NCBI GenBank assembly: GCA_965242695.1
Contig: CBDESU010000002.1
Span: forward strand, 192,001 to 256,000
Origin: Cenarchaeum sp.
GTDB lineage: Archaea > Thermoproteota > Nitrososphaeria > Nitrososphaerales > Nitrosopumilaceae
Direction of reading: 5' to 3'
DNA length: 64,000 bases
A program made the position numbers and the translations under genes. A model generated the notes under the pieces. The model was given only the letters and a program-made list of their open reading frames with translations, was not told the DNA's origin and ran no database searches. Of the stretch, positions 16,621 through 56,410 are shown piece by piece (positions within the stretch are counted from its first letter, which is position 1; each line of letters begins with the position of its first letter).

Positions 16621-17698
16621 TTGGCACCACACTCCCGTACGCCAAGGCGTCGATCGCCTCGTCGAACAGCTCTTGCTCAGCCTCGCCGGCCCCGTTGACG
16701 CGTATTCTTTCGACGTCCGTGTACGATCCCCGCCTGCGCCGAAAGTAGTACATGCCAAGGTCCTCGGGCCCCACGGCGCCGCTGCCGACCAGCCCCAAAA
16801 CCGCATGCGCCACAAAGGGGCTGTGCGTCGTGACCACCATGTTGATGCCGCGCGCCGATGCGGCCTTGACCATTTCGCCGACGAGCTTTATCTGCCTTAT
16901 CGGCTCTATATGCTCCTCGGGATCCTCGACGACGAGCATCCCGGCCGGATCGAGGTGGTTCAGGGCCACCATGATTGGGAATGCGGACGCGACGCCAGAT
17001 GCGGCCGAGCCGATCCCGGCCTCGAAGCCGAGCGGGTCGGCGTAGGCATTCGCCCGGATGCCGGGCGCGCCGGGCGCCTTGATCGAGCCTCGAAACACCC
17101 TCGAGAACATCTCCTGCGCCCGCCCGTCGAGCCCGCCAGAGAGCGCCTCGAGTGCAATGCGGCAGAACTGCGCGAGGTGCCCGGGCATCCGGTGGCAGAC
17201 ATCGAGCGGCGCGGGGGCTTCGAGGCGCAGGGCCGAACTTGAGGGGCCGCCCCCTGCCGGCACCAGTGCGAGGAGCGACTGGATCATCGCCGCCCTCCCG
17301 GCGGGGACGTACACGCTGCGCTCGCCGGCGCCGTCCGCCCCGGCCTCGGCCGGCGCCGGCGGCACGGGCCGCATCCCGCCCTGCGGTCCGCCCCGTCCAA
17401 AGTCGAGCACCGCGCCGCCTCCGGAGCCGGCGCCCACCAGCTCGATGCGGCCCGACGGCATCGAGTGTGTGACCGCATCGGATCCCTCTATTCCGGCGCC
17501 CCGGAGCACGGCGCCGGCGAGCGCGCCGGCGCCGGCGCCGTCGGGGAGGAGTCCGAGCCGGCGGGCCGCGTGCAGGAGCCGCGCCGCGATGGACTTGCCC
17601 GAGCAGTTCGGGCCGACGAACACGGTCAGCCTGTGATCCCCGATCGCCGCGCGCCTTATCGGCCCTATGTTTTCAAGCCGGGCCTCGCTGAACATCAT
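16610..17698 (-). CDS. ABC-type/AAA_21 ATPase
   Basis: LENIGPI, Walker A GPNCSGKS, signature SAASG, Walker B VVEDPEEH and TTHS. Confidence 0.85.
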   Translation of the reverse strand: MMFSEARLENIGPIRRAAIGDHRLTVFVGPNCSGKSIAARLLHAARRLGLLPDGAGAGALAGAVLRGAGIEGSDAVTHSMPSGRIELVGAGSGGGAVLDFGRGGPQGGMRPVPPAPAEAGADGAGERSVYVPAGRAAMIQSLLALVPAGGGPSSSALRLEAPAPLDVCHRMPGHLAQFCRIALEALSGGLDGRAQEMFSRVFRGSIKAPGAPGIRANAYADPLGFEAGIGSAASGVASAFPIMVALNHLDPAGMLVVEDPEEHIEPIRQIKLVGEMVKAASARGINMVVTTHSPFVAHAVLGLVGSGAVGPEDLGMYYFRRRRGSYTDVERIRVNGAGEAEQELFDEAIDALAYGSVVPNAP

Positions 17699-18451
17699 GC
17701 CCGCCGCGCGCCCTGCGCCGCCCATATTAGGCGTTTCCATGGAGGCTGCCGAGCGCGTTGCATGCGCCGCCCGCCGCCGCGGCCCTGCGTCGCGCCGCAT
17801 TCCAGCCGCGCCCCTCCGCGGCAGCGCATCGCGGGCGGACGGCCCGCGGCGCGCCGCCGCGCCGTCCCGCCATGCCGATCACGATCCCCGCCGCACATGC
17901 ATCGCCCGCCGCCACAGACGCCGAGCACACGCAGGACAATCTCCGCCCTAGCCGGCTGCGCGCCAAGGCCCTGCTTGACAAGTGCGAGATCGAGGCAGTG
18001 CGGCGGCGGGCCTGCCTCTTCCGCCAGCGGACCGCGGCTGGCGTCCGTGGGAGGGCCGCCCGCGCGCCAGCGGCGCCTCTGCAAACCCCGCATCACACCG
18101 GCAGGCGGCCTTCGGCCGCCGCGTTCCGCAGCAACCCGCGCAGGCTTGGCCGCAGGCCTGCGCCCGTCCCAGATCCCCCAATCCCGATGCAGGGAGCCCG
18201 CGCAGGCGGGCTGCAGCCCCGCGCCGCAGGCGCCAAGAGGGGGCGAAGGGCGGCCTCGTAGCGGCCCGTTGCAACCAATATAGCCCAGTGCATGCGTGCG
18301 GCGACATGGAGGCGGGCGCAATTCCACCGCATGCCGCAGGCATGCACGCCCGCGCGCTCGCACTGTGCCGCGCCGTCGCCCCCGGCCCGCAGGCACGGGC
18401 GCACCCCGCCCACTTCCCGCTTAGGCCCGCGCGCGCCGGAGGCCCGCGCCG

Positions 18452-26240: not shown

Positions 26241-26720
26241 ATGGACAGGCTGACGATTGATCTCGGGCACATACTGCGGCAGCTTCCCGACCTGGACTTT
26301 AGCATGTCCGACTTTGAGCACCGCCTGCGCATCCAAAAATTCGTCTACCTCGTGCAGGCGTTCGACGTGTACCTCGGCTACGACTACTCGTGGTACCTGC
26401 ACGGGCCGTACTGCACCAGGCTTGCGACGGTCGGCCATGCGCTGACATCCATATACGACATGGTGCCATACGACAAGGACATGGTGTTTGTCAACCCCGC
26501 CGTGCAGGAGCGCTTCGGGCGCTTCAAGAAGTTTATCAGGGGGCGCGAGAACGACAGCGACTTTCTCGAGATCGCCGCGTCTCTGCACATACTCCACAAG
26601 GCATGCGGCATGGCGCGCGCCGACGCTGTCGAAAAAGTCGCCTCAAAGCGGGATCGCTTCAAGGGGGACAGGTGCAACCGGGTCTGGGAGGAGATGGCAG
26701 GATGCGGCCTGATGGCATGA
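26241..26720 (+). CDS. SocA/YwgA-like winged-helix (DUF4065-related) antitoxin-type protein
   Basis: RLRIQKFVYL...LGYDYSWYLHGPYC..LA, LEIAAS. TTTTTAT upstream at ~26211. Confidence 0.75.
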   Translation: MDRLTIDLGHILRQLPDLDFSMSDFEHRLRIQKFVYLVQAFDVYLGYDYSWYLHGPYCTRLATVGHALTSIYDMVPYDKDMVFVNPAVQERFGRFKKFIRGRENDSDFLEIAASLHILHKACGMARADAVEKVASKRDRFKGDRCNRVWEEMAGCGLMA

Positions 26721-35225: not shown

Positions 35226-35349
35226 CACGGGCGGTTGCATGTGATGCCGCCTTTGCCACATGCTAGACGCGGGATCGCGCTCAAGGAGCGCCCGCTCCGC
35301 GGCGTCCATGCTGGTACGGCGAAGGCAGAAGGGGCGGGGCGAACGACAC

Positions 35350-37113
35350 ATGGTTATCTATAGCCTGGCGTACGACGACATAATGGACATGCTCGGGACG
35401 CTAAACCGCCGTCATTGCGTGAATGCCACGGTAATGAACAAGGGCCAGCTAGAAGCGGCCCTAGAAAAACCGGATTTGTCCATGTTCGGCAAAGTGTTCT
35501 ATCCCGAACTGCATCAAAAGGCCGCAATTCTTATGGAGTCTCTCTGCAAATCCCACTGTCTAAGCGACGGGAATAAACGCACATCGATGATGGCGGCGGA
35601 GTACCTGGTCAGCGCAAATGGCGCTACGCTCGTACTTCCGCTAAAATCCATACGCCTAACTGTCGATTGCGCCATGGACAAAGACGACAAGATGTCCGAC
35701 GAGCTGATCATGTGGTTCAAGACCCACATCGCTCAAGACCCGATCCAGCTCTCCATAATGTTTGAAGAGCTGATCGAGGAGCGGTTGATCGTGACCACGC
35801 TACTGAGCCAAGGCGAGTATGACAAGGCTGAGAAGATTGTCGACAAATGGCTTGTTTTTGACAATTATCCCGAAAGCAAGGCGATGTGGGATGATCTGAC
35901 GGACAAATGGAAAAAGCGAGACAGATCGATGGGATCTGAGCCGGGGGCGTCACGATCGAATTTTTCTCCATGGCTGTCTATAAGCCCCGAACTCAGAATA
36001 GAGGACAGTGTTAACCTTGCATCGATCCTGCCTGATGCCAGAGCAACCAACCCCGTTTATACGGAACACAGCATGAGCGAGCTAAAAAGGGTAGAAAATT
36101 ACATACAGGCGCAATCTGCACAGAGTAGTACGTCTTCGCTGCAGCGGGCAGCAGGCATCTTGGAAGGCTTCCACAGTCACAAGAATGCGTGTTTGGTTTA
36201 CGACAAGTTGATCGAAGTGGAGGGGAGGAGCAATCGCATTATGCATCGCAAGTTGTTTAACTTAGTCTTTAGCGAGCAATACAATGAAGCGCTGGCCTTG
36301 TCGAACCAGTTGCTAGAGTTGGATCAAAACTCCGTCCACGTAAACAGACTCAGAGCCAGAACGTGCGACATCATGGGAGATCGTTTGTCGGCACTGGAGT
36401 CTGCAAACCGAGTCCTAAAACAGATCCCGGATGATCTCCCCATGCTTAAAATCAAGGTGGACATAATCCGTGAGGATTATCCGTCGGACGCCACAAAACT
36501 GGACAGGGAAATATACCGCCTAGACCCCGACGATCTCGTGTCAGCTAAAAATATGGCGGTGTCGCTATCCGATCAGGGCAGAAACGAGGAAGCCATAAAA
36601 CTATTTGACAAAATACTGTCCAGAGCGCCCCGAGATGCCGCGGCGCATTATAGCAAGGGGCTATGTCTGTCACGCTTGGACAAAAACGAGGATGCGCTGA
36701 CATATTATGAAAAATCACTGCAAGTCGACCCAAGATATGTCATGGCGTTAATTAACATGGGAGCCATCTATATGAATGATGACAAAAAGAATGAAGCGTA
36801 TGACTGCCTATCCAAAGCGCTGAAATTGAGCCCCGAACACCCCATTGGTCTGCTAAATATGGGGGTAGTGCTACTGTCGCAGGAAAATGCTCAAGAGTCT
36901 ATCAACGTGCTCAACAAACTCCTTTCGGTCGATCATCTTAATGCCAACGGCATGTACTTGCTAGCACAGGCATACGTAAAACGTGATAAAACAGTCCACT
37001 CGCTTGACATTCTAGAGCGCCTTGTAAACATAGACCCGTCCTACAAATCTCGGATAAAAAATGACCCCAATTTTTATCAATTGCGAGACTTGCGCCGCTT
37101 TCAAAATCTGTAG
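35350..37113 (+). CDS. Fic/Doc toxin fused to C-terminal TPR repeats
   Basis: LEAALEKP, FGKVFYPELHQKAA and HCLSDGNKRTS (Doc-type GNKRT); multiple TPRs (AHYSKGLCLSRLDK.EDAL..YEKSL.VDP). Low GC. Confidence 0.88.
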   Translation: MVIYSLAYDDIMDMLGTLNRRHCVNATVMNKGQLEAALEKPDLSMFGKVFYPELHQKAAILMESLCKSHCLSDGNKRTSMMAAEYLVSANGATLVLPLKSIRLTVDCAMDKDDKMSDELIMWFKTHIAQDPIQLSIMFEELIEERLIVTTLLSQGEYDKAEKIVDKWLVFDNYPESKAMWDDLTDKWKKRDRSMGSEPGASRSNFSPWLSISPELRIEDSVNLASILPDARATNPVYTEHSMSELKRVENYIQAQSAQSSTSSLQRAAGILEGFHSHKNACLVYDKLIEVEGRSNRIMHRKLFNLVFSEQYNEALALSNQLLELDQNSVHVNRLRARTCDIMGDRLSALESANRVLKQIPDDLPMLKIKVDIIREDYPSDATKLDREIYRLDPDDLVSAKNMAVSLSDQGRNEEAIKLFDKILSRAPRDAAAHYSKGLCLSRLDKNEDALTYYEKSLQVDPRYVMALINMGAIYMNDDKKNEAYDCLSKALKLSPEHPIGLLNMGVVLLSQENAQESINVLNKLLSVDHLNANGMYLLAQAYVKRDKTVHSLDILERLVNIDPSYKSRIKNDPNFYQLRDLRRFQNL

Positions 37114-38685: not shown

Positions 38686-39156
38686 TCACCACATCTCGTA
38701 CTTGCTGAGCGCGGCGTACTCGGGGTACCTTGCATAGACGTGCCTCAAGAGGTCGGGCAGGGCGGTGTCGTTGAACTCGGCCTTTATTTCCTCAAGCTTG
38801 TCGTACGCCTTGTTGAAGCCGTATTCTTCGTACCGCGGATCGGACAAGAGCCTGCCGGCGGTCTCCCTGCCCGCCTCGGTGATGGTATAGGTGTACACCG
38901 TCCTGGCGGGGCGATCAGAGTCTGACCTGCCCTCGCCTATCAGCCCGTCCGACGTGAGCGCGTCGATGTCCCGCTGAAGCGTCTTCGAGTACGGCCCGTA
39001 GTCGAACGGGGCAAAGCCCAAGTTGGGAATGCGCTCATCGTCCTTGAGGTGCTCCCGCATGAGAAAGATCATCTTTTGGAAGCGCGTCCGGCCTCGGACG
39101 GGCGCGCCGCCGCATGCATGCGCCAAGAGGAGCGGGTATACCTGCCTAGGAGTCAA
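38686..39156 (-). CDS. SocA/DUF4065-like winged-helix protein
   Basis: VRGRTRFQKMIFL, F.PFDYGPYSKTL..DIDAL, YTITEAG and LLRHVYARYPEY. TTG start overlaps the TrmB stop. Confidence 0.75.
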   Translation of the reverse strand: MTPRQVYPLLLAHACGGAPVRGRTRFQKMIFLMREHLKDDERIPNLGFAPFDYGPYSKTLQRDIDALTSDGLIGEGRSDSDRPARTVYTYTITEAGRETAGRLLSDPRYEEYGFNKAYDKLEEIKAEFNDTALPDLLRHVYARYPEYAALSKYEMW

Positions 39157-39886
39157 GATCCGGCACCCTAACCTCCTTGCCTGCCTTAAACCCCCTCTTG
39201 AACCTTTCCACATGCGGCGCCGCAAAGCTGCGATCCCTGACCAGCAGGGCGCAGTCGGGCGCCTCAAACCTGGCCATGACGACCTCGTCGTCAATCAGGC
39301 AGCACGTCTCAATGTCCCTGCACGTGCGGGCCTCTGCCCCGCGCATGTAGGGCTCGCCCGACATTGAAAGGGACTCGGGCACGGCCAGCTCGACCTTCAC
39401 CGTCTCCGCCTTTTTTGCCAGCATCTCGGCATGCGCATCAAGCCACCGCAGGTCGCGATCCGCTATCCTCACCGACTCCTTGCAGCCGGCCAAGAGCTCG
39501 TGCATCTGCACCTGTATGCCTCCCATGCCGTACACCGTCCAGCAGGCCGCGCTCCGGGCACCCTGCGCGTGCCTCTCCTCGTACGCCTCTTCGGCCGCGC
39601 CGACTGCCGCGTCCCTTGATGCCTGAAGGGCCGTGAGCTCCTTGTCGAGGACCCCCCGCGGGTGTTGCGCGTCGTACAGGGCGGGCCTGTCGCCGATCTT
39701 TACGATGACGCCCCTCTGGTTGAGCTCCTCAAGGACGGAGTATATCTTGCCCTGGGCGACCCCCGACCTAGCAGCCAGGTCGGCTGGCTTCATCACCCCC
39801 TGCTCGACCAGGGTGGCATAGACGGATGCGTTGCCCTCGCTCCAGCCGATCCCCTTTAACGCCTCGACGAGGCGATCGCGGGCCAT
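39146..39886 (-). CDS. TrmB-family transcriptional regulator
   Basis: L..IG.SE..A.VY.TL...G......LA..SGV.QGKIYSVL..L..RG, RPALY.A..P, followed by a PLD-like effector domain. Confidence 0.88.
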   Translation of the reverse strand: MARDRLVEALKGIGWSEGNASVYATLVEQGVMKPADLAARSGVAQGKIYSVLEELNQRGVIVKIGDRPALYDAQHPRGVLDKELTALQASRDAAVGAAEEAYEERHAQGARSAACWTVYGMGGIQVQMHELLAGCKESVRIADRDLRWLDAHAEMLAKKAETVKVELAVPESLSMSGEPYMRGAEARTCRDIETCCLIDDEVVMARFEAPDCALLVRDRSFAAPHVERFKRGFKAGKEVRVPDLDS

Positions 39887-39904
39887 CCGGCCGCGCCGCC
39901 TCAT

Positions 39905-39985
39905 GCTCCCTTATAACAATACTATCGTACGCGGGGCCAACCTGTGTTCATCCGTGAGTTTTTTTGAGTGCTTTTATATAGGGGG
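39905..39985. promoter_or_regulatory. Divergent promoter region between TrmB and the Ubl operon
   Basis: TTATAA at 39911 (25 nt before TrmB ATG) and TTTTATATA at 39972 (26 nt before Ubl ATG); AT-rich island. Confidence 0.65.
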
Positions 39986-40005
39986 GTAGAAGGCCCCCCG
40001 GCAAG

Positions 40006-40302
40006 ATGAGGAAAAATGTCATCGTCATCGATGCCGCCAACGCCCGAGAGGCAAGCGTGAGCGTCGATGACGGCGAGACAATCGACTCTGCCCTCGACAG
40101 GGGGTACGAGGAGCTCGGAGAGACGCGCCGCCCCAACGCCCATTTTGTGGACGGAGAGGGGAATAGCCTCGACGGCAAGCTGAGCGAGCCGGTCCGCACG
40201 ATCGAGACCGACCAGGACGGCAACACGACCATCGAGATCAGGAGCCCCACAGGGGGCGCCTGCCTTTTTTCTATCGGAGGGGACGGGGATGGCGCCTGCT
40301 AG
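40006..40302 (+). CDS. Ubiquitin-like (beta-grasp) protein with GG at 83-84 and a 14-aa extension (BilA-like)
   Basis: Beta-beta-alpha pattern (NVIVID..ASVSVDDGETIDSALDRGYEELG), ends TIEIRSPTGG-A; first gene of an E2/JAB/E1 operon. Confidence 0.7.
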   Translation: MRKNVIVIDAANAREASVSVDDGETIDSALDRGYEELGETRRPNAHFVDGEGNSLDGKLSEPVRTIETDQDGNTTIEIRSPTGGACLFSIGGDGDGAC

Positions 40303-40819
40303 GCCCGACACCGCGATCGCCCGATCGCAGTTCAAAGAGGACCTGATCAAGGTCGCGGGCAGCAGGCGCGCCAGGCAGCACGGCTGGCTGTTCAAGCCGG
40401 ACTACAAGGGCCTGCGCCTGCGCGTCGACATGTGGTCGCTTGACAAAGGCTGCGAACGGCGCGACGACTACCACATAGACATGGACATGTCGTACTACCG
40501 CGACTGGCCGCCCGGCGTGACCTTTGTCAACCCGGACACGGGATCCTTCGATCCGAACAGGGACGCGCGGTGGCTTCCCGCAAACCCCGCCATGAACCCA
40601 CCCGGCGTCAATATCGGCTACCACCTCTCGTACACCCTGACCGACGGCGTGACCAAGCAGATGGTCTGCAACTCGATGGTGCTAGAGTACTACCAGTCGA
40701 ACCATGCGCCCAAGCCCGAAGAGGTGTGGGATTCCAGGCGCCACACCCTGCATGCGACCCTGACGGTGCTCCAAGACCTGCTAAGGGAGCCGTACTACGG
40801 AGGTCGACGCTCGCAATGA
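40289..40819 (+). CDS. Prokaryotic E2 ubiquitin-conjugating-like enzyme (BilB-like)
   Basis: DMSYYRDWPPGVTFVNP (E2 Y..PP.V.F motif) and MVCNSMVLEYY..NH...W with a candidate catalytic Cys. Confidence 0.75.
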   Translation: MAPARPDTAIARSQFKEDLIKVAGSRRARQHGWLFKPDYKGLRLRVDMWSLDKGCERRDDYHIDMDMSYYRDWPPGVTFVNPDTGSFDPNRDARWLPANPAMNPPGVNIGYHLSYTLTDGVTKQMVCNSMVLEYYQSNHAPKPEEVWDSRRHTLHATLTVLQDLLREPYYGGRRSQ

Positions 40820-41364
40820 GCCCCTCTCAGGACGCTATCCCGATCGCGGCTGCGGGCGACGGCAAAAGGACGCTCCTTGTCCAGAAAAGCCTCGTCGAGG
40901 AGACGTACCGCATGTTCGAGCGAAACAGGTGCAGGCAGAGGGTGTCGGTCGCCTACTGGTACGGGACAGGACGGCCGCAACTCGGGACAAGCGCCGTCCT
41001 GTCCTTGGGAGTGCCCCGGGCCGAGTGCAATGTGGTCGACTACCATGTGGAAGAGCCAGAGATCGCCCGCCTCGGCCACGCAATAAGGAGACAGGCGCCG
41101 GGGTCGATGGGGTCGCTGGCGCAGTTCTATACCCAGCCGAGCGGGGACGGACGACACTCCAAGAACGAAGACCTCAACGCCATCAGCCTGCGCGACGGCT
41201 TTCTGTCCCTGGCCGCGCCCTACTACGGGAAGAGGACGGAGCCGCTCATGGGCAACATAACCGTGCACGAGTGCTGGAAGGGCCGCTGGCGCGTACTGGG
41301 AGAGTCGGAGCGCCCTGGGCGCATCAAGATCATCGACAGCCTTGTCGACATGGAGGCGGGCTGA
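40816..41364 (+). CDS. Catalytically degenerate JAB/JAMM protein
   Basis: Paralog of 43107 with E to V, HTH to YTQ and SxxD to SxxE. ATGA-coupled to the E2 gene. Confidence 0.75.
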   Translation: MSPSQDAIPIAAAGDGKRTLLVQKSLVEETYRMFERNRCRQRVSVAYWYGTGRPQLGTSAVLSLGVPRAECNVVDYHVEEPEIARLGHAIRRQAPGSMGSLAQFYTQPSGDGRHSKNEDLNAISLRDGFLSLAAPYYGKRTEPLMGNITVHECWKGRWRVLGESERPGRIKIIDSLVDMEAG

Positions 41365-43110
41365 ATGGAAAGGCACCTGGACAGCCGCGGGGGCCGCCTG
41401 CCTCGAATCGGTGCAGGGGCCAAGAGGGTGGCCGTCTCCATATCCGAGGCGGCCGCGGAGGGTTCCGAGGGGCAGGCCATGCTGTGGACCGCCTGCAACC
41501 TGCTGTGCAGGCTAAAGGGAGTCGTCGGCGAGCTGGCAGTCTGCGTCCCAGAGGGGGTCGACGTGGCGGCAGGCGCTCCCCCTCCCGCGCCAGGGCGGGG
41601 CGATCTTGGCAGGTCCCTCGTCGACTCGCTCGACGCGTGCTCGCGCGGCTGCGATGTGCGGCTCGCGCAGGGCGAGCCGGAGCAGGGGCTTGATGCCGCC
41701 GTGCTGCTCGGCACGGGCGCACCAGCCGGCACGGGGGCGGCATTCGAGGTCCATGCGGCCTGCTCGGGATGGCTGGCATACGTGTGGCAGGGCTCGAGAC
41801 CCGCGCCGGATGCGGCCGCGCCTAGCGGCGACGGCCACAACCCGTTCGGCGCGGCGACGGCGGCCTGCCTTGCGGTCGGAGAGGTGTTCAAGCGCCTAGG
41901 CGGCCTGGACGTCAAAAAGGGCCGGTTTGCCGAGTCGCTGTGCTTTTCGACCTACGATCTAGAGGTGCATGGAGGACGGGAGGATGCCCCGGCCAACCCG
42001 GCCCTGCCTGCGCATATAGATCTCGGGCGGATTGCGGTCTGCGGCGCCGGCGCAGTGGCGCATGCGTTCTGCCAGGCGATCGCCTCGCTTGGCGAAGTCA
42101 AGGCCGACCTGCTCGTCGTCGACAGAAAGTCCAACTACGCCCTGGGCGACGAGTCCGTCGAGCCGACCAACCTGGCGCGGTACGTCATGGCGACTGGCGC
42201 CGACATAGGGCGCCCCAAGGCCGAGGTACTGTGCGGGAGGATCCGCTCGCCCTGCATACGGGCGGAGCACACCGACGAGGGGATAGAGGCCCTGGCCAGC
42301 AGCGGCGGGCTGTCCGGCGAGGGGCACGTCGTCTCGTGCGTCGACAACAACAGGGCGCGGCACGCCATCCAGGGCTGCATCCCCCGCATCATACGCGGCG
42401 GCAGCGTGTACGACCTGTCCTCCAGGGTGTCCGTATACGACATGGCAGGCGGCACCGCGTGCCTCAGGTGCGAGAACCCCGTCGAGGCGGGCGAGAGCGA
42501 CGAGGGCGTGGCCGAGCGGCTGCGCGACATGGAGCCGGATCGGCGGCGGGCCGAGGCGGGGCGCGCCGGCGTAGACCCCGGCGACCTGGACAGGTACCTA
42601 GAGTCGCCCGCGTGCGGCGCGCTCTCGGGCGATGCGCTGCGCAGGCTCGCCGCCGCCCTTCCCCCCGAATTCTCGGTCAACTTTGCGACCATGCTGAGCG
42701 GCACCCTCCTCGCCGCCGAGGCGTTCAAGGCGGCCTGCCCGCCCCTGCGCCCCGCGCTGGACGGGGCGGCGCGCTCGGACATGTTCTACAGCTTTTGGAA
42801 CTGCCGCCACCGGCTCTCGCGCACGGCGCCGTTCCCCGAGTGCTGGTGCCGCGCAGGGGGCACGACGCCGAGGGACATACATGGAGAAAAGTGGGGGCCG
42901 AAGGCGGCAGCGGCTGGACGGCAAGGGGCAAGCCGCGCCCTGCGCGGCGGGGCGGCGCCGGAGGCGGGCGGGGCGGCAGGAGACGAATGGCGTCCGGCAG
43001 GGGGCCCGAAGGGGAGGGGCGCAGGAGTGGCCGGCCGACTCGAACCCCGCCTCCACGTGCGCCCGCAAGCTGGGGCGGCAGGGCTGCGGCGCGGAGCGTG
43101 GCGCGCATGA
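41365..43110 (+). CDS. E1 ubiquitin-activating-like enzyme (ThiF) with N-terminal inactive domain (BilD-like)
   Basis: N-terminal GW.A..NPFGA..AACLAVGEVFK; GAGAV, D..VEPTNLARY, KAEV and SCVDNNRAR; CLRC; candidate catalytic CG; C-terminal CWC. Confidence 0.88.
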   Translation: MERHLDSRGGRLPRIGAGAKRVAVSISEAAAEGSEGQAMLWTACNLLCRLKGVVGELAVCVPEGVDVAAGAPPPAPGRGDLGRSLVDSLDACSRGCDVRLAQGEPEQGLDAAVLLGTGAPAGTGAAFEVHAACSGWLAYVWQGSRPAPDAAAPSGDGHNPFGAATAACLAVGEVFKRLGGLDVKKGRFAESLCFSTYDLEVHGGREDAPANPALPAHIDLGRIAVCGAGAVAHAFCQAIASLGEVKADLLVVDRKSNYALGDESVEPTNLARYVMATGADIGRPKAEVLCGRIRSPCIRAEHTDEGIEALASSGGLSGEGHVVSCVDNNRARHAIQGCIPRIIRGGSVYDLSSRVSVYDMAGGTACLRCENPVEAGESDEGVAERLRDMEPDRRRAEAGRAGVDPGDLDRYLESPACGALSGDALRRLAAALPPEFSVNFATMLSGTLLAAEAFKAACPPLRPALDGAARSDMFYSFWNCRHRLSRTAPFPECWCRAGGTTPRDIHGEKWGPKAAAAGRQGASRALRGGAAPEAGGAAGDEWRPAGGPKGRGAGVAGRLEPRLHVRPQAGAAGLRRGAWRA

Positions 43111-43847
43111 GCGGATACTGGCGGCCGAGCCACGAGGTCCTGCGGGCCAGCAAGAGCGGCAGGCGCCTTGCCGTGCCGAGGCGCCTGCTGGACGCGACGT
43201 ACGACATATTCGCCGAGCACGGGGACCGCCGCGAGGAGTCCGTGGTCTACTGGTACGGGGCCGAGTCGCTCCGCACCGGCCGCGGCGGAAAGATCGACTT
43301 GGTCGCGGCGGTCGGGGTGCCCCGCGGCAGGTACGCCGAGGGGCAGTTCGCGGTGCAGGCCGACGACGCGGCGCGCCTGGGCAGGGCGATGATGTCGCAG
43401 TCCCTCTCGTGCCTGGCGCAGTTCCACACGCATCCCGGCCGCGGCACCGAGCACTCCGACCACGACGACGGGAACGCGATCAGCATGCGCGACGGCTTTC
43501 TGTCGCTCGTCGCGCCCTGCTACGGGGGCGCAGGGCGCTCCCTGCGGGACGGCGTGACCGTTCACGAGGCCTGGGGGCGCCGGTGGTGCGTGCTGGGCGG
43601 CGGGGCGGCCGAAAAAAGAATCTTTGTCATTGACGACATTGTCGACCAGCGGCAACCGCTGCGCGGAGAAAGGGGCGGCGGGGCCGAGGCCGGGACGGGC
43701 GGGGCGCCGCCTGCGCCGCCCGTACTGCGCCGCGCCGGCGCTGGGGACGCAGACGGAACGGCGCCTGGGCGCGGCGCGGCCGGGCCGCTCTCCCGCGCGG
43801 CATCAGTCATACTATGCAGGATAAAGAGGGCTTTCGGCAGGGCGTAG
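43107..43847 (+). CDS. JAB/JAMM metallopeptidase, intact motif (BilC-like)
   Basis: REESVVYWYG ... AQFHTHPGRGTEHSDHDD matches E...HxH...SxxD. ATGA overlap with the E1 gene. Confidence 0.88.
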   Translation: MSGYWRPSHEVLRASKSGRRLAVPRRLLDATYDIFAEHGDRREESVVYWYGAESLRTGRGGKIDLVAAVGVPRGRYAEGQFAVQADDAARLGRAMMSQSLSCLAQFHTHPGRGTEHSDHDDGNAISMRDGFLSLVAPCYGGAGRSLRDGVTVHEAWGRRWCVLGGGAAEKRIFVIDDIVDQRQPLRGERGGGAEAGTGGAPPAPPVLRRAGAGDADGTAPGRGAAGPLSRAASVILCRIKRAFGRA

Positions 43848-44705: not shown

Positions 44706-45677
44706 TCAATGATCGTCAAGTGTAGTCTGAACCGCAGACATGTTTTCGCTACACATCTTGTCCAAGAGAAATTCCCTGACATTCTTTTGGCGTGGTAGTG
44801 CATTAATGCGGTACCTGCCATCAGGAAGTTTTTTCGCTAATTTCATTTTATATAGCGTTTTCAGTCCGCGTGTTATCCAGCGAGTCCTTATCTGACTTTG
44901 CTCACCTTGTAGCCCCGACCAGCTTGCATAGTAGTTGTCAAGTCTACTTTTGAGATCTTCAACTGTCACTGTAATGTAGCCCTTCTTGTCAGCAATCAAT
45001 GGCAGTACGTTTTGGTAAAGCATGGACAGCACATAAAGGTCTGGAGGACTCGCTCTTACAAACAATCTTTTTTCATACCTGGCATGCGTCACCTCTATAG
45101 GCATCTCAATGCAAGCGTTCAGGCGTTTGTCGAAATACTTGCAGCCGGTACTTCCACTATCAAGGCCAAGTCGTATCACCTCCCGGGTCTTTCGACCCTT
45201 TATTTTTACTTCCTCCCAATGACCCAAACATAGATTTGTTGCGGTGATGGATGCACCGCTCTTATTTTTTTGCATCAGGACGCGGGCGTGTTCTACATCA
45301 ACCTTACGGACAAGAAGCAGTATAGAGTGCTCCCTGATTCTACCGTTATTAGTCTTCCATCCCGTCTCAATTTCGGCATATTTGGCGATTTGTTCCCCCA
45401 GGTCACGAACCATGTGCTCCTGGTCCTGCGGCAACGACGACTTGATTTCGCAGACTATTCCTTTTCTGTCATTGTCACACTGGAAAATTGCATCGGGCTG
45501 GACATCTTTTGATGCAGCCGTGCGCATTGTCGGCTCGCTTACCTTGAAGCTGCACTCCTCGTTGGGGCCAAAGGCATCTTTCAGTCCCACAGATACTACC
45601 ACTGTGGCATAGTATGCATCGTATTCAGCGTTGCACCGTTCTCTGCAGTTTTCTGCGGAGTGCTCGTCACCATTCAT
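44706..45677 (-). CDS. PD-(D/E)xK nuclease with probable C-terminal winged helix (component B)
   Basis: VQPDAIFQ...IVCEIKSSLP...QIAKY; WITRGLKTLYKMKLAKKLPDGRY; ends QTTLDDH. Overlaps component A by 11 nt. Confidence 0.8.
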   Translation of the reverse strand: MNGDEHSAENCRERCNAEYDAYYATVVVSVGLKDAFGPNEECSFKVSEPTMRTAASKDVQPDAIFQCDNDRKGIVCEIKSSLPQDQEHMVRDLGEQIAKYAEIETGWKTNNGRIREHSILLLVRKVDVEHARVLMQKNKSGASITATNLCLGHWEEVKIKGRKTREVIRLGLDSGSTGCKYFDKRLNACIEMPIEVTHARYEKRLFVRASPPDLYVLSMLYQNVLPLIADKKGYITVTVEDLKSRLDNYYASWSGLQGEQSQIRTRWITRGLKTLYKMKLAKKLPDGRYRINALPRQKNVREFLLDKMCSENMSAVQTTLDDH

Positions 45678-46713
45678 ACTCGCCGATCACGCCCTCGTAA
45701 AATGCAGATGCCAGGAACTCTGTAAGTCGCAGCAACGACGCCTCGGATGTCCGGATCTGCGGTATTATGGCCAGTGCATCGTCACCCACAGACCTTACGG
45801 CAATTGTGGAGTTGTCCATTCTGTCCACTATGGATATGTAGAGGTGTGGGTTGCCGGCATGCACTATCACATAGTTGCAGTGTGTATACTCATCGATCAG
45901 ATTGCAAAACCGCTTCATGTCGTCATCGTCTGCGAACACGTCCCTTTTGTACTTGATCAGCAAAGGCTTCGGTTCTTTGTCAGCGCGTTCGCTCCGGCTG
46001 CGGTGCGAAAAGCGGTTGCGGCGTTCTAATCCATTGTCTATGATCGGGCGCAGTACGTTGGCGTATATCCCCTCTACGTTTCCACTGTGGATAGTGATCA
46101 GCCCCTTGCGGGATACAGTTATGTCCATGGCCTCGCGTCCATCTGTGAATGCGCGTAGGCTGTCAATCACCAAGTTCTTTTTTTCGGCGTCTTTGAATAC
46201 ATCTTCGACAGCGTCATACTCGCGGTTCGCAGCAGTTTTGTCCCATTCCAGAGAGGTCTTTGGCATGGTGCCAATGGTCCTTTTCTTCACGGATTTCTTG
46301 TGCTTTAGTGACGCGCCTGTATTCGCCTCAAACTCTGCAAGGATGCTCCTGATTTTTCCAGACTCGGTAAACGGTGCAAGCACCTCCGGCCCTAGTCTCT
46401 TGACGATGCGCTGTACTATGTCAAAAAACCCACCTCCTTCGCCGCTGAACAGGAGCACATGGCTGTCCTGCTGTAGCGAGTGGAGCCTTCCGTTGGTGTC
46501 TTCGCATGTCACTGAATATATGCTATGGGTGAACGAATCGTGCTGGTCCTTGGAGATCATTGCCACCTTGGCGACAGCATGACTCACTGTGGTGATCATG
46601 CTGGAAATGTCCCCCTCCGACATGAGGCACTGGACCTTTAGCGATCTGCACTCCCTCATGTAGGAATTGACCGCCATGGCTAGATCCAGCGGCATGTCTA
46701 TCGAGTCGCTCAC
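45667..46713 (-). CDS. Hypothetical 348-aa protein, component A
   Basis: C-terminal half aligns with 12690 (RSR, PL.IK, F.D, RF, H..NP, VD..D.S, I.PQ.RT..ASL.RL, F.EG...EY). Low GC. Confidence 0.85.
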   Translation of the reverse strand: MSDSIDMPLDLAMAVNSYMRECRSLKVQCLMSEGDISSMITTVSHAVAKVAMISKDQHDSFTHSIYSVTCEDTNGRLHSLQQDSHVLLFSGEGGGFFDIVQRIVKRLGPEVLAPFTESGKIRSILAEFEANTGASLKHKKSVKKRTIGTMPKTSLEWDKTAANREYDAVEDVFKDAEKKNLVIDSLRAFTDGREAMDITVSRKGLITIHSGNVEGIYANVLRPIIDNGLERRNRFSHRSRSERADKEPKPLLIKYKRDVFADDDDMKRFCNLIDEYTHCNYVIVHAGNPHLYISIVDRMDNSTIAVRSVGDDALAIIPQIRTSEASLLRLTEFLASAFYEGVIGEYEW

Positions 46714-47646: not shown

Positions 47647-50361
47647 CTACGGTATCAGCACCGTCTGTATCCTGGTCTCGGCCGGATCGGCGGGCTGCTC
47701 TGGGAACCTGCCGCCCTCGAGCTCGACTGACGCTAGCGCATCGACCGTAGCATGCCCCTCCGTCACCATGCCAAACACCGTGTACTGCCCGTCGAGCCAC
47801 GGCGCATCCCCTAGAACGACAAAGAACTGCGAGCCGGCGCTGTCGATGTCGGCCCCCCTTGCCATCGACACCGCGTACTTTGTGTGCGTCGCCATGCCGC
47901 TGATCTCGGCGGGTATCGCGTAGCCTGGGCCGCCGGCCCCCCACGTCTCGCGCTCGCCCCCTATGGTATTTGGATCCCCGCCCTGCATGACAAACCCGGG
48001 GTTTATCCGGTGGAATATCGTCCCGTCGTAGAAGCCCGCGCTGGCCAGGCTCCTAAAGTTCTCCACCGTGCGCGGCGCAATGTCCGGCCTCAGCTCTATC
48101 GTAAAGTCGCCTGCGGCGGTCCTCACCACGGCAGTCCCGAGCGCCATCCTCTGCTGCTCGGCGATCATCTCCTGCACCTCTTCCATCGTCGGCACGTCCG
48201 GATCGTACTCCTTGTTCACCTCGTACACCAGAACGGCCGTCACCGGCCCCGGCGACTCGCGCCAAAACGTCTCGGACGCGTACGCGAGCCGGAACGGGCC
48301 CGTACCGTCGGGCGGGTACTTCAAGTCCATCGCGTACACGGGCGTGTACCCCGGGACGTACGAGCCGGACTGCTCGTTGGTCATCGGGTTTACGTACGCG
48401 ATGACAGAGTAGGGGATGATCCTGCCGGCCAGGGTGCTGTCCCAAAAGTGGTCAGTCCCCGACAGGCCGTCCACATGCAGGTATTTTTCCACGGGATCGT
48501 CGGCGGCAATCCTCATGAACCACTGCTTCTTGCTCTCGTCGCCGCCCCCGTTGAGCAGGTACGCCCCGACGGGCTCGCTCTGTATCTTTGTCCCCGCCAC
48601 GAATATCAGCACATAGTCGGCCCCCATCTCGTTGAGCCTCTTCCACGCCTCGTCCGGGTCGGCGAGCATCGTCCGCGCGATCTCGCGGATCGCCGACGTG
48701 TCCATCGTCGCGTTGTCGGCAAGCGACGTGCGGTTTCCAAGCGTCGTAATCCAGTACCCGTAGTCCCACCAGGCGGCGACCACGGATCCCTCGGGCGTCT
48801 GCGTCCGCATCCACTCGAGCGAGTCCGGCCAGTCGCCGAACACGGCGCCAAAGTTGGTCCCCCCGTTGAGTATGGTCGGCGGCGCCCGCACGCTGTCGAC
48901 CCAGTTGCCCTGTATGGGGACGACGGTAGGCACGAGAAGCAGGCCGACCACGGCCGAGACGAACGCGATCTTGCCGGCAAGCGGCATGCCGCGCACGTGC
49001 CGCTTTGTGCGCACGTCGGGGCGGAGGGCCTCAGACGCCAGCACTGCAAGCCCTATCGACGAGAGCACGATGACGGCAAGCGATGCGAACAGCTCGAGGC
49101 GGATGAACGTAGAGCTCACGTACGCGCCGGCCACGCCGAATATGAGCGCAAACGCGATCATGTCGGCCGGCAGGCGGATCCTGTACGACCGTATGCGCTC
49201 CCTGTTCGAGAATATCAGCCAGGCGCCGATCCCCGCGAACACCATCAGTATCGACAAAAAGAAGAACGACTGCGCGGTCGTCGTCGTGGCGTGCTCGGCG
49301 ACCGAGTCGACGAGCGGGTCGACCGACCTGAGGAACGGGTTGAGCGCGTTCTGGTACCGGAACGAGGGGAGCGCTATGAACCCCGCCGCGGCGTTGGCGG
49401 CGAGCACGCCGGCGCCGGCTGCGACCGTCCCGCCCAGGAAGATCAGGCCGTTGCGCAGGGCGGCGGCCCTGCGCGAAAAGCGCTGCAGCAGCGACGAGGC
49501 GGCGAGGTACGCGGCCGAGCCGCCGACCAGCACGCCGCCGATCCCCTCGACGAACCCGATCCCCGGCCTCTCAAAGAGCGGCACCGTCCCGAGGAACGCG
49601 ACCGCGAACACTGGCACAGACCACGCAAGGAACGAGTGGTCGCGGCGCAGCAGCGGCAGCGCCAGCAGGAACAGGCACAGGGGCACCACTATGTACTGGA
49701 TGCCGCCCCACGACGCCAGTCCGAACGTGAGCATGACGCCGCCGGCGGCCATGCGGGCCCCGGCGATCGCCCGGCCCCGGGGCGTCCCTCCCCCGTCGCC
49801 TCCCCTAAGCGCGCTCAGGAACAGGTACACGCCGAGCAGGCCGTAGAACAGGCCGACCGGCTCGGACTTGAACCAGCCGATCGTCCCCCTCACTATCACG
49901 GGCACGGACACGGCAAAGAGCAGGGACGCGAACAGGCCGGCCGTCGTCCCGCCGATCACCCTGACCAGCGCGAACACGACGACCGCCGTCAGCGAGCCGA
50001 ACACGGCGGGCACCAGTATCGTAAAGTCGTACAGGGGCATTCCGCCGCCAAAGGCGGCGTACGTGTAGGCGGCCGTAATGTGGAGCATGGTCTGCGAGGT
50101 AGCCGAGATGTCGCGGCCGTTGGGGAACCAGCTCATCGTGTCGTGCCAGTCCAGGTACGCCGGCAGGCCGTGGTCCACGAGGTACTCGGTGGCGCGGTAG
50201 TTGAAGAACGGGTCGAACTCGTTGAGCTCGTACCCAAACTCGGCAGGCTGCGCCCGTATCAGGAACGAGACGGAGAATGCGGCGGCGAGCACACCGACGA
50301 CGAGCAGGTGGTGCAGGCGCAGCTCGAACCGGCCCACGGTCGCCAGGCGGGCGTTGGACAT
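47647..50361 (-). CDS. aglB: Oligosaccharyltransferase AglB/STT3 fused to a C-terminal cyclophilin PPIase
   Basis: EFDPFFNYR, SVAEH, WWDYGYW, ADNAT and GGDESK motifs, then FYDGTIFHR..PGFVMQGGD, SMAR, AGSQFF and WLDGQYTVFG. Confidence 0.93.
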   Translation of the reverse strand: MSNARLATVGRFELRLHHLLVVGVLAAAFSVSFLIRAQPAEFGYELNEFDPFFNYRATEYLVDHGLPAYLDWHDTMSWFPNGRDISATSQTMLHITAAYTYAAFGGGMPLYDFTILVPAVFGSLTAVVVFALVRVIGGTTAGLFASLLFAVSVPVIVRGTIGWFKSEPVGLFYGLLGVYLFLSALRGGDGGGTPRGRAIAGARMAAGGVMLTFGLASWGGIQYIVVPLCLFLLALPLLRRDHSFLAWSVPVFAVAFLGTVPLFERPGIGFVEGIGGVLVGGSAAYLAASSLLQRFSRRAAALRNGLIFLGGTVAAGAGVLAANAAAGFIALPSFRYQNALNPFLRSVDPLVDSVAEHATTTTAQSFFFLSILMVFAGIGAWLIFSNRERIRSYRIRLPADMIAFALIFGVAGAYVSSTFIRLELFASLAVIVLSSIGLAVLASEALRPDVRTKRHVRGMPLAGKIAFVSAVVGLLLVPTVVPIQGNWVDSVRAPPTILNGGTNFGAVFGDWPDSLEWMRTQTPEGSVVAAWWDYGYWITTLGNRTSLADNATMDTSAIREIARTMLADPDEAWKRLNEMGADYVLIFVAGTKIQSEPVGAYLLNGGGDESKKQWFMRIAADDPVEKYLHVDGLSGTDHFWDSTLAGRIIPYSVIAYVNPMTNEQSGSYVPGYTPVYAMDLKYPPDGTGPFRLAYASETFWRESPGPVTAVLVYEVNKEYDPDVPTMEEVQEMIAEQQRMALGTAVVRTAAGDFTIELRPDIAPRTVENFRSLASAGFYDGTIFHRINPGFVMQGGDPNTIGGERETWGAGGPGYAIPAEISGMATHTKYAVSMARGADIDSAGSQFFVVLGDAPWLDGQYTVFGMVTEGHATVDALASVELEGGRFPEQPADPAETRIQTVLIP

Positions 50362-50652
50362 CAAGCGAGCGGCGCGGGCGGCGCGGCGCATATTACCTTT
50401 TGTGGGGCGCGGGCCGCGGCTGCGCATGGGTCTGGACGGCATCCAGGCCGCGGCGTCTCCCTGTCGGCGGGCGGGGCGATCGCGGGCAGGGGGCGCCGCC
50501 CCTTGTCCGGCCCGCCCCCTCCCGCCGAGGGACGGGGGCGCCCTTCCCTCCCGGCCCGCGGCAGGCCGCGTGCGCGATGCGCCCCGGGGCCGCATCCGCG
50601 GCCCGGCACTGCGCCGGAAAGATTATTGAAGACGGGGCGCGGGCCGCCCCCG

Positions 50653-54622: not shown

Positions 54623-56410
54623 TCATGCGCTCTGTACGCCAAGTATCTCGCACAGCCTTGTCCCAAACGGATCTCGGCCTCCCATGTACTTGCGCCATCT
54701 TTCCCTTCGCCGGTACAGGCTCGGCAGCTTGTTCTCCTTGCGAAGCGGATCGCGCAAATAGTACATCTTCTGCTCGCTGAGGGGCTTGTCGGCATGGTCT
54801 CCTATGACTTCCGTAATTTCGTCCGCAATCCAGATGACAAGATCCATCAGCTCGTCGTCCATCTTGTCCATGACGTCGGCGTCGTACCTGATCGCATTGT
54901 CGATGATTGCGTCCACAACGGCGTTTTTTGTGTTTGTATCCATCGAGCCGAGTATTCGGCCAACTAGTCCTATCACGTAGTACCGCCCAATTTTGTACCT
55001 CAGCAGAAACCGGGCGTTTTTCTCGTCTTTGCCGACGCCGATGCCCTCCCCAATCCGTCTCTTGATTCTGCCAAGCAGGTGGTCAAAGACGCTAGGCACG
55101 ATGAAATCTTTCGGACCCGCATCCTCGTAGAGGCCGATGAACGGCTGCGACTTATCCGGGTCTTTCGGATCAAACGTGAATATCTTTGACGCCGACAGCT
55201 GCATTGACAAATCGGGGCTTCCCGTGTATGCCAGCTTTAGCCGGGCCGCGTCCACATTTCTGATCAGGTACAGTGCTTGCCTGGTTCTAGGGCGCTCGGT
55301 CCAGGTCAGCCACAGCCCCCTCTTCCGCTCGAAGAAGAACTTGTCGTAGTCTTTGAACCGCTCCTCGAGCTTTTTCAGGTACGGATGGTTGGATTGCATG
55401 TCCGGGTCTTTTATGACATTCTGGTGGTTTGTGCACCTGCTTATGTTTTCGCTAAATTCTGTGTCGCTCGTTTCCGACAGGCGAATCACCAGTCCCGCTC
55501 TCGGATCAACGTCGTCCATGTTGGCTATGGTTGTGATGGTCTGGCATCCATTGACTATCTTCAGGTTGTCTATCCACGCAATGCCGGTCTCCTTGTTGTA
55601 TTCAAAACGCTCGCATATTGCGCTAATGCCGTTGTTGTAGTGCCAGAGTCTTGCAGGCTCGGACTCTACAGTTTCCTTGATTTTTTTGGAAACAACGGAC
55701 TTCGAACCCAGGGACGATCGTGGGTTTAGGGAAAAAAGTGTCGGGACGCCGACAGATTTGCACACCTCCTTCAGCTCGGAAGCCGGCACGGTGGCGACCA
55801 TTCTTTTCACCTGCGTACCGGCTGCTGCGCCCACAAAGCACTCTCCTTTGATCAAGCGCAGCTCGCGTGGAGGGGTTTTTGGGTTACCCACATAGGCAAT
55901 CAGATCCCCGATTTCGAGGAATTCGAATGTTGTATCGCTGGGCATGTTCTGGTCCACCGACGGTGTGATGCTTTTCGCAGATTCGGACAGGGTCGCAGTT
56001 GTGACAAAAAGCAGTCGCGTCGAATATTTTTGCTCAACTAGACTCTTATACCGTTTTTGCTGCTCCTGAAAGCGTGAACTGCAGTCGCCGGTATTGGACA
56101 GCAGCTTCTTCGGAATCGCGTAAAAGTCAAGGACTGCTTTTGGCTCCACTTTGGACGACCTGTCTTCGCTGAATTTTGCCTGTATGATTGTGACTGTTTT
56201 GTTCGCGCAGTCCACATGGAAATAGTCTATTCCCCCGTCGGCCCCCATGGCGTCTTCCAGCGCGTCGTTCACATCCTTGTCTTCGACTCCCAGCACGTTT
56301 GAGGCAGACCAGTGTTGGAAGGCCCGGTCGAGATCGCGGTATGTATAATCGTCCCGAATGTGCTTTACTTCCTCCACAAGCACGTGCCGCAGCTCTTCTT
56401 CCCTGTCCAT
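54623..56410 (-). CDS. AIPR-family (abortive infection phage resistance) protein
   Basis: DGGID, IIQAKF, LFSLNPRSSLG, IKET...P..LWHYNNGIS, IVNGCQT and TNHQN motifs. Low GC. Confidence 0.9.
   Translation of the reverse strand: MDREEELRHVLVEEVKHIRDDYTYRDLDRAFQHWSASNVLGVEDKDVNDALEDAMGADGGIDYFHVDCANKTVTIIQAKFSEDRSSKVEPKAVLDFYAIPKKLLSNTGDCSSRFQEQQKRYKSLVEQKYSTRLLFVTTATLSESAKSITPSVDQNMPSDTTFEFLEIGDLIAYVGNPKTPPRELRLIKGECFVGAAAGTQVKRMVATVPASELKEVCKSVGVPTLFSLNPRSSLGSKSVVSKKIKETVESEPARLWHYNNGISAICERFEYNKETGIAWIDNLKIVNGCQTITTIANMDDVDPRAGLVIRLSETSDTEFSENISRCTNHQNVIKDPDMQSNHPYLKKLEERFKDYDKFFFERKRGLWLTWTERPRTRQALYLIRNVDAARLKLAYTGSPDLSMQLSASKIFTFDPKDPDKSQPFIGLYEDAGPKDFIVPSVFDHLLGRIKRRIGEGIGVGKDEKNARFLLRYKIGRYYVIGLVGRILGSMDTNTKNAVVDAIIDNAIRYDADVMDKMDDELMDLVIWIADEITEVIGDHADKPLSEQKMYYLRDPLRKENKLPSLYRRRERWRKYMGGRDPFGTRLCEILGVQSA

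Follow-up and report, generated by a model that had tools for sequence, protein, structure and literature searches.

Among prokaryotic systems, Bil is the clearest relative of eukaryotic E1-E2 ubiquitination, and it has so far been studied in bacteria only. Type II Bil operons have the gene order Ubl-E2-JAB-E1 (Ubl, ubiquitin-like protein) in the available portion of the preprint that describes them (10.1101/2023.09.26.559546), and the published type II table comprises 162 operons, mostly from Rhizobiaceae, with a single archaeon, Candidatus Heimdallarchaeota LC_3, and no Nitroso- or halo- entry (10.1101/2023.09.26.559546). Because one archaeal type II operon is already tabulated, a Bil-like system in archaea is not new in itself, but the variant described here is. 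We analyzed a 64,000-nt stretch of a Cenarchaeum sp. genome (contig CBDESU010000002.1, positions 192,001 to 256,000; hereafter, the window), in which positions 38,686 to 43,847 hold an operon for a Ubl, an E2, an E1, and two JAB proteins, together with two divergent genes. This operon is probably a Nitrosopumilaceae-level archaeal member of the E3-less Bil family, closest to type II BilABCD, with a dead JAB paralogue (JABa) kept and an intact JAB peptidase (JABb) added after the E1 gene. An earlier note on this DNA had likened its E3-less Ubl-E2-JAB-E1 set to type II Bil, and this reading is upheld, since the nearest solved structures of all four protein types are those of Ensifer aridi BilABCD.

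The region contains seven genes, namely five co-oriented plus-strand genes (40006-43847) and two divergent minus-strand genes, and all coordinates of the earlier note were reproduced (Table 1). The five operon genes are closely packed: the Ubl and E2 genes overlap by 14 nt; the JABa start overlaps the E2 stop, and the JABb start the E1 stop, each as ATGA (4 nt); and E1 begins at the first base past the JABa stop. Their third-position G+C content lies between 0.81 and 0.92. The synteny that the note had proposed to look for in other archaeal genomes was found at five other distinct loci, which places the operon arrangement beyond chance.

With type II BilABCD of E. aridi TW10 (8tyx, 8tyy, 8tyz, and 8tz0), the operon shares (i) the gene order Ubl-E2-JAB-E1; (ii) a Ubl made of a single beta-grasp domain, with a conserved Gly and a cleavable tail; (iii) an E2 with a Cys, a Glu at +6, and a His at ∼+12/13; (iv) an E1 that combines an inactive N-terminal domain with a ThiF domain, an insertion bearing a Cys, and a Zn site of four Cys residues, without any E3; and (v) a divergent two-gene regulator, which is found in some type II members. 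The differences lie in the archaeal host; in an E2 whose sequence can hardly be matched to the canonical CEHH E2 and which has a Tyr at the second His-equivalent; in a Ubl tail of 14 residues, where type II tails are given as "up to nine" in the accessible preprint text (10.1101/2023.09.26.559546); in the extra dead JAB, with the live JAB relocated after E1; and in a pair of TrmB/HTH_34 and Panacea-like proteins that replaces CapH/CapP. Judged from comparisons with type II sequences, and with type I by description only, the operon appears type II-like, and type II fits best.

The Ubl model (AlphaFold2) shows a single beta-grasp fold of the order beta-beta-alpha-beta-beta, with a mean pLDDT of 79.8, which rises to ∼88 for residues 1-80 and falls below 50 in the disordered tail. 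Its top match in the Protein Data Bank (PDB) is BilA (8tyx_A; Foldseek, E 1.3e-5), followed by SUMO and ubiquitin, and the prediction of a beta-grasp protein with a GG motif thus held. G83-G84-A85 is invariant in 11 of 11 Ubl sequences and is followed by unconserved tails of 1-14 residues. Bacterial BilC trims a Ubl precursor of this form, according to the part of the type II preprint that was available (10.1101/2023.09.26.559546).

For the E2, a large protein collection yielded 33 relatives, counting the window's own, and the alignment comprised 28 relatives plus the window protein after exclusion of P0018 and P0019 (very short contigs) and of P0028 and P0032 (truncated). The AlphaFold2 model built from this alignment (pLDDT 93.6, pTM 0.89) finds BilB (8tz0_C) as its best PDB match (Foldseek, E 2.4e-4), ahead of eukaryotic E2s. 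Consistent with this, VIA-align gave a Z of 12.9 against BilB (rmsd 3.5, 138 aligned) and of ∼10 against eukaryotic E2s, so that the predicted UBC fold with a Cys was recovered (Cys127). Across the alignment, Y135 and W147 are present in 29/29 sequences, E133 in 26/29, and C127 and H139 each in 25/29. These residues echo the BilB signature C-x5-E-x-H-x4-H ("CEHH"), as given in the preprint text at hand (10.1101/2023.09.26.559546), with Tyr135 in place of the second His-equivalent. A single-sequence PDB search with the E2 returned one unrelated match only (E 0.73). The E2 profile matched the E2s of three plasmid operons (Ralstonia, Sinorhizobium GR64, and Natrinema) with an hhalign probability of 99.6% (E 2.4e-24, 160 columns). 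By sequence, the E2s of this proteobacterial and haloarchaeal group are much nearer to the window E2 than is the canonical CEHH E2 of Rhizobiaceae. The homologues P0029, P0030, P0031, and P0033 have Arg instead of Cys127 and have also lost His139; a Cys in these proteins aligns with residue 110, on the neighboring hairpin strand of the E2 model, and may be a migrated catalytic cysteine.

The plasmid operons came to light in a tblastn search of the E1 against plasmids (14 records), in which they were its best partners. Ralstonia pickettii pRp12D0 and Sinorhizobium fredii GR64 carry Ubl-E2-JAB-E1 behind divergent ImmA/IrrE and helix-turn-helix (HTH) genes, and a Natrinema zhouii plasmid (2264-5026) carries a four-gene Ubl-E2-JAB-E1 set annotated as hypothetical/Mov34/ThiF, next to a divergent DUF6293/HFX_2341 (Csa3-like winged-helix) gene. 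These operons share the four genes, their order, and clearly homologous E2s with the window, but they have one active JAB and other regulators, the GR64 Ubl is a multi-ubiquitin, and their E1s are just 22-27% identical. CapP/CapH also accompany the operon listed for Ralstonia solanacearum in the published type II table (10.1101/2023.09.26.559546), which may be of the same type as that of pRp12D0. In the canonical type II operon of NGR234, the corresponding genes encode a DUF2604 Ubl, a "metal-binding" E2, a JAB, and an "E2 ligase fold family C" E1.

The E1 matches Pfam ThiF (4.2e-11) and PADLOC BilD (5.1e-11, residues 21-337), and its sole PDB sequence match at E ≤0.01 is E. aridi BilD (8tyz_A; 1.7e-15, residues 105-386). 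The two-domain E1 anticipated by the note, with a ThiF domain, Zn-binding CxxC/CxC motifs, and a candidate catalytic CG, is borne out at the level of sequence: GxGxxG lies at 227-232, CxxC at 366/369, CxC at 493/495, and C417-G418 between them. GxGxxG is confined to the second domain; the first 200 residues fit the profile of BilD but have no nucleotide loop. The GxGxxG glycines (G227/G229), D253, N269, R272, K285, D327, and the four cysteines C366/C369/C493/C495 are invariant in 9/9 aligned E1s, and Cys417 is present in 8/9; it sits within an insertion that the Natrinema protein alone does not have. The arrangement of an inactive N-terminal domain, ThiF, a Cys-bearing insertion, and a Zn site appears to be of the type II kind. 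In the relatives, the E1 terminates close to the position that corresponds to residue 515, and the window E1 is ∼65 residues longer. We take this tail to be a spacer read through by chance, because the relatives end at ∼515, its G+C by codon position (0.93/0.77/0.75) is unlike that of coding sequence, and it is prone to indels. The exact 581-aa E1 translation is absent from the large protein collection, which does contain the 246-aa JABb; the public E1 gene call probably uses a different start or end.

An E1 with a ThiF domain, together with weak NCBIfam matches to ThiF, UbaA, and MoeB, might instead belong to a SAMP/UbaA-type or sulfur-carrier system. These matches, however, lie far under their cut-offs (SAMPActivE1UbaA, 23.8 bits versus 450), and the operon combines an E2 and two JABs with a two-domain E1 and the Cys417 insertion, features that SAMP systems do not have. 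We therefore regard this alternative as extremely improbable, and the distinction drawn earlier from SAMP/UbaA stands. Slightly less remote, but still highly improbable, is a ubiquitin system resembling that of eukaryotes, as in the Caldiarchaeum/Asgard operon, or a Bub (6E) system, toward which the Ub-like and UBC folds, and the eukaryotic E2s and SUMO/ubiquitin as next-best structural matches, might point. Against this, the best matches are always Bil proteins; RING or zinc-finger E3 families are absent from the 11 + 31 neighboring ORFs scanned, as the note's separation of the locus from the Caldiarchaeum/Asgard operon implied; and DUF6527 (BubE) is likewise absent from the neighboring ORFs scanned. 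Moreover, the E1 and E2 of Bub are fused and lack catalytic cysteines, as described in the accessible part of the source (PMC11601596), with Ubl-E2 or E2-E1/JAB-E1 as the fusions that mark these systems, whereas the operon studied here has unfused genes and retains both cysteines.

Type I BilABCD (Collimonas sp. OK412) has the same four functions in the same order, and type I Bil has been shown to tag a phage tail protein, according to the available text (10.1101/2023.09.04.556158). Of the PADLOC Bil models, whose use the note had suggested, BilC and BilD match JABb and E1, while BilA and BilB find no match. As the BilC and BilD models match the type II proteins of NGR234 equally well, they cannot separate type I from type II. 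In the preprint text seen (10.1101/2023.09.26.559546), BilA of type I is a protein of two beta-grasp domains, whereas the window Ubl has one.

Of the two JAB proteins, JABb has an intact E...HTHPx7SxxD motif (E44, H107-T-H109, S117, and D120). It matches PADLOC BilC (1.3e-9), its best PDB match is BilC (8tyx_B; 2.2e-6), and it scores 21 bits against Pfam Prok-JAB, under the cut-off of 25; among PDB sequences, the E1 and JABb match solely BilD and BilC. P0048, an orthologue of JABb, shows 91% identity along its full 247 residues and thus also in the basic C-terminal tail. JABa and JABb share 40% identity (E 4e-38), and the active site of JABa has changed from Glu to Val, from HTH to YTQ, and from SxxD to SKNE. 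The protein collection has six JABa relatives, with the window protein counted as one of them; these losses are identical in 4/4 close homologues (P0042-P0045, 67-88% identity), and the motif is intact in P0046 (49% identical to JABa). The dead JABs form one clade in the JAB tree (support 100/99). A single JAB with an intact motif occurs at all five distinct relatives' loci.

With all of its catalytic residues gone, JABa might be a decaying relic with no function of its own, and JABb a plain replacement. Low-complexity, non-coding-like sequence flanks JABb, as it would an inserted gene, and the tree cannot make JABb the sister of JABa, which agrees with such a replacement. The JABa ORF, however, is intact in the window and in the four close homologues; 55 columns are invariant in the alignment of the JABa group (A6, active P0046 included); and the translational coupling of JABa to both E2 and E1 is kept. 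Public sequencing runs also argue against decay. Run X5 has a 4469-nt contig that spans 40373-43847, with 79 differences to the window. In run X6, labelled a sponge metagenome and from a separate study, a single contig of 4724 nt aligns to 40097-43010 and to 43080-43847 at ∼92-93% identity and reaches from Ubl to JABb in the same five-gene layout; the 69 nt at 43011-43079 are swapped for 68 other letters. Of its 14 indels, the 12 listed fall in the E1 low-complexity sequence (41571/41577), the spacer (42914-42940), and the JABb tail (43664-43675), and none of these 12 lies within JABa, despite a divergence of ∼7%. The pieces from run X4 were fragmented, and run X7 covered 5 of 30 bins; the runs listed as carrying the sequence include none of RNA. 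The X5 and X6 contigs keep both the layout and the intact JABa frame, which indicates that the five-gene form persists across diverged populations. JABa is, in addition, predicted to pair with JABb, as set out below with the caveats of that prediction. Taken together, these data make a mere relic unlikely, and we favor a JABa that has been kept for a purpose.

The prediction of a complex between JABb (residues 1-185) and JABa gave an ipSAE of 0.82 (0.82, 0.82, and 0.83 in the individual runs) versus 0.06 for the best of three controls, on a mark that 116/157 solved complexes and 2/215 mismatched pairs reach; this calibration holds roughly, since the prediction used shallow own alignments of 7 and 6 rows. 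Contacts are at least 95% the same from run to run, with a partner pLDDT of at least 79. The predicted interface is two-fold-like, with the C-terminal strand of each chain (∼173-183) placed on residues ∼63-71 of the other. The model supports a JABa-JABb pairing, although the pass may reflect a memory of solved MPN dimers, and paralogues derived from a homodimer would score well regardless of whether their pairing has persisted. A hint as to the role of JABa comes from two JAB-E1 fusion proteins, P0055 (646 aa) and P0125 (647 aa), in which an active JAB is joined to a Bil-type E1; the E1 part of P0055 is sister to the window E1 (49% identity, SH-aLRT 100) and is its closest relative. These fusions hint that a JAB at the ancestral position works physically beside the E1. 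We read JABa and JABb as a predicted dead/live JAB heterodimer that would descend from a homodimeric ancestor, with JABa non-catalytic and possibly holding the peptidase to the E1.

In eukaryotes, MPN+/MPN− pairs such as Rpn11-Rpn8, CSN5-CSN6, and BRCC36-Abraxas combine an active JAMM peptidase with a paralogue that has no metal site. The window pair resembles them in its two-fold-like arrangement, in prediction only, and differs in belonging to a prokaryotic operon of independent origin, with no lid, signalosome, or BRISC-type complex. Until now, the pseudo-peptidase theme has been associated with the COP9 signalosome, BRCC36 complexes, and the lid of the proteasome; a conserved dead/live JAB pair would offer a small and tractable model for the origin of pseudo-peptidase partners. 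With less than even confidence, we propose that JABa/JABb may be an independent prokaryotic counterpart of these heterodimers, in which one copy of a duplicated, formerly homodimeric Bil peptidase lost catalysis, retained its dimer interface and its place beside the E1, and today serves to position or gate the active peptidase at E1-E2-Ubl, and that the divergent winged-helix (wHTH)/Panacea-like pair may fill, in archaea, the role of CapH/CapP as a switch that senses damage.

The TATA box that the note had placed ahead of the operon is present (TTTATATA, 39973-39980), ∼29 nt before the Ubl ATG, and TTATAA lies on the minus strand at 39911-39916, ∼27 nt before TrmB Met7. Such TATA-start spacing fits leaderless archaeal transcripts. 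Just upstream of the Ubl TATA, at 39947-39965, lies a stretch TTCA-N5-GAGTTTTTT that is common to the intergenic regions of two related loci, L007 and L008; the L008 copy falls within a 9-bp perfect inverted repeat, as seen by eye in the alignment. This stretch may be an operator. An inverted-repeat search of the intergenic region returned one 9-nt GC-rich pair, which was discarded.

The divergent TrmB and SocA-like genes of the earlier note were likewise recovered. The TrmB protein scores 51.3 bits against Pfam TrmB (1.1e-13; cut-off 25.6) and lies far under the cut-offs of NCBIfam TrmBL1/TrmBL2. For the second gene, the TTG start at 39156, which overlaps the TrmB stop by 11 nt, was chosen by likeness to L007 and L008. 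Its product matches PADLOC PDC-M19A (3.6e-11) and DarG (1.5e-5), and a profile of six homologues has as its best PDB match 7yk3_B, a DNA ADP-ribosyl glycohydrolase (DarG; 8.1e-5). The window protein has no match to Pfam PF13274 (SocA_Panacea), and the homologue at L010 reaches 15.5 bits (0.034), under the cut-off of 25.7; the evidence for a Panacea-like protein, though weak, is in agreement throughout. A divergent pair of a wHTH gene and a Panacea-like gene is found at 5/6 distinct loci with upstream sequence, the locus without it being L011; the wHTH is a TrmB protein in the window and, as orthologues at the same place, in L007 and L008/L009, and an HTH_34 protein in L010 and L012. The pair occupies the place of the HTH and ImmA/IrrE peptidase genes of the Ralstonia and GR64 operons, which correspond to CapH/CapP and accompany 15% of type II operons in the preprint text available (10.1101/2023.09.26.559546). 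By analogy, the wHTH/Panacea-like pair may act as a switch, presumably of a new kind for a conjugation system, and TrmB may control the operon, as the note had suggested.

We infer the following course of events. The TrmB (wHTH) and Panacea-like pair would keep the divergent promoter closed for as long as no signal comes in. JABb would then cleave the Ubl precursor after Gly84; the E1 would adenylate Gly84, take the Ubl as a thioester on Cys417, and hand it to Cys127 of the E2; and the E2 would join the Ubl to lysines of target proteins without an E3, the targets probably being virus structural proteins. JABb could remove the Ubl as well.

Relatives of the operon are few. A one-genome-per-species scan gave five loci, titled Thaumarchaeota, Nitrosotalea, Nitrosopumilus, or uncultured archaeon, of which L008 and L009 are near-identical; JGI metagenome contigs gave 76 pattern matches, from which two further loci resulted, one of them too short for context. 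Every locus long enough to read has Ubl-E2-JAB-E1 with one intact-motif JAB, and the named relatives are all Thaumarchaeota. Within the class, the E2 profile matched in 3 of 401 genomes (3 of 81 genera). An E1 search of 41 genomes, including 40 close relatives (four of them congeners), matched six at E ≤0.001, and the five matches outside the window's genome (E 1e-5 to 5e-4) cover part of the ThiF domain alone and are weak, ThiF-level matches. This scarcity, together with the weak E1 matches, marks the operon as rare and patchy, like mobile accessory systems. The E1 tree did not recover the order of bacterial groups, owing to long branches.

Because the neighborhood is dominated by surface-glycosylation genes, a close copy occurs in the sponge-metagenome run, and the regulator belongs to the TrmB family, the operon might instead serve a regulated protein modification for the archaeon's own physiology (stress, or life in a host) rather than antiviral defense. 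The TrmB family is known mostly from sugar regulation. This alternative is rather doubtful in view of the sporadic distribution, with no copy in the four congeners, of the specific relation to Bil systems, and of the restriction or methylase genes that adjoin relatives (L012, for instance, adjoins a restriction-type helicase gene). The earlier label of a "defense island" is only partly apt: defense-like genes are present, but they are scattered among those for glycosylation.

Several further points weigh against an antiviral Bil operon as we have drawn it. The E2 profile reaches PDB BilB by sequence at just E 0.072, and the canonical type II E2 of NGR234 with 37.8% probability (E 3.4e-4, 86 columns). 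The tree fails to place JABb, so that duplication and acquisition are not separable by it, and the E1 and JABb tails look non-coding by composition. The biochemical steps, the pairing of JABa with JABb in the cell, the control by the divergent genes, and the action against viruses are all inferred. In viral contigs, the E2 profile gave 44 pattern matches and no confirmed one, and no direct tie of the operon to any virus was seen. Finally, Ubl, E2, and JABa match no model in Pfam, PADLOC (the BilA and BilB models included), or NCBIfam, owing to which defense censuses based on hidden Markov models would miss this clade.

A full-text literature search found no account of this thaumarchaeal clade, of an inactive Bil peptidase, or of the control of a Bil operon by wHTH/Panacea proteins. 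The main text of PMC12988326, on archaeal immunity, has no mention of Bil, ubiquitin, ISG15, Thaumarchaeota, or Nitrososphaer; the type I Bil preprint (10.1101/2023.09.04.556158) has none of "archaea"; and the review PMC11354881 has none of Thaumarchaeota or Nitroso. New here are (i) the conserved dead JAB; (ii) the 91% identical JABb orthologue and the five-gene layout in a ∼92% identical, independent contig; and (iii) the predicted JABa-JABb dimer. A coherent thaumarchaeal clade implies that such systems circulate in abundant archaea of the ammonia-oxidizing type.

Table 1. Features of the operon, its divergent regulators, and the surrounding window (positions in the window)
Feature	Position	Strand	Remarks
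Ubl precursor (BilA-like)	40006..40302	+	98 aa; beta-grasp residues 1-82, G83-G84-A85, tail
Ubl 14-residue tail	40258-40299	+	presumably removed
E2 (BilB-like, UBC fold)	40289..40819	+	176 aa; Cys127, E133, Y135, H139, W147
JABa, dead JAB/MPN paralogue	40816..41364	+	182 aa; ancestral BilC position
E1 (BilD-like), whole gene	41365-43110	+	581 aa
E1 conserved part	41365..42909	+	N-terminal domain without nucleotide loop, ThiF, Cys417 insertion, Zn cysteines
G+C-rich low-complexity spacer read as E1 tail (∼65 residues)	42910..43110	+	absent in all relatives
JABb, intact JAMM peptidase (BilC-like)	43107..43847	+	246 aa; core 1-182 + 65-residue tail
Divergent promoter region	39905..40005	.	101 nt; sequence inspection
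TrmB-family winged-helix regulator	39146..39904	-	ORF 252 aa; likely start Met7 at 39886
Panacea/SocA-like gene	38686..39156	-	156 aa from TTG at 39156
Fic-TPR protein	35260-37113	+	617 aa; N-terminal Fic/DOC, long TPR array; weak PADLOC PDC-S23 match
AAA ATPase like NsnB/AriA/GajA	16610-17800	-	PADLOC NsnB 1.5e-19
AIPR/AbiU-like protein	54623-56410	-	Pfam AIPR 1.2e-36; PADLOC AbiU 1.5e-31
Second Panacea/DarG-C-terminal-like gene	26241-26720	+	PADLOC DarG 1e-5

The window encodes eIF2-alpha and an STT3/AglB oligosaccharyltransferase, which identifies it as archaeal, and it lies in a genome of 3.89 Mb in two contigs; its G+C content varies between 54 and 74%. The thaumarchaeal host named in the note is corroborated by a genome of the same family (G164, Nitrosopumilus sp.), whose E2 match is the L010 locus. 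The STT3/AglB domain is joined to a C-terminal cyclophilin-type peptidyl-prolyl isomerase domain in one 982-aa protein (47647-50595, minus strand). The second Panacea/DarG-like product and the divergent Panacea-like protein of the operon have an R-x-QK...GPY signature in common. Two adjoining genes of 323 and 348 aa (44706-46713, minus strand), which have no significant match in Pfam, PADLOC, or NCBIfam, have a G+C content below that of their surroundings (window GC 0.54; GC3 0.50-0.65) and were probably acquired recently.

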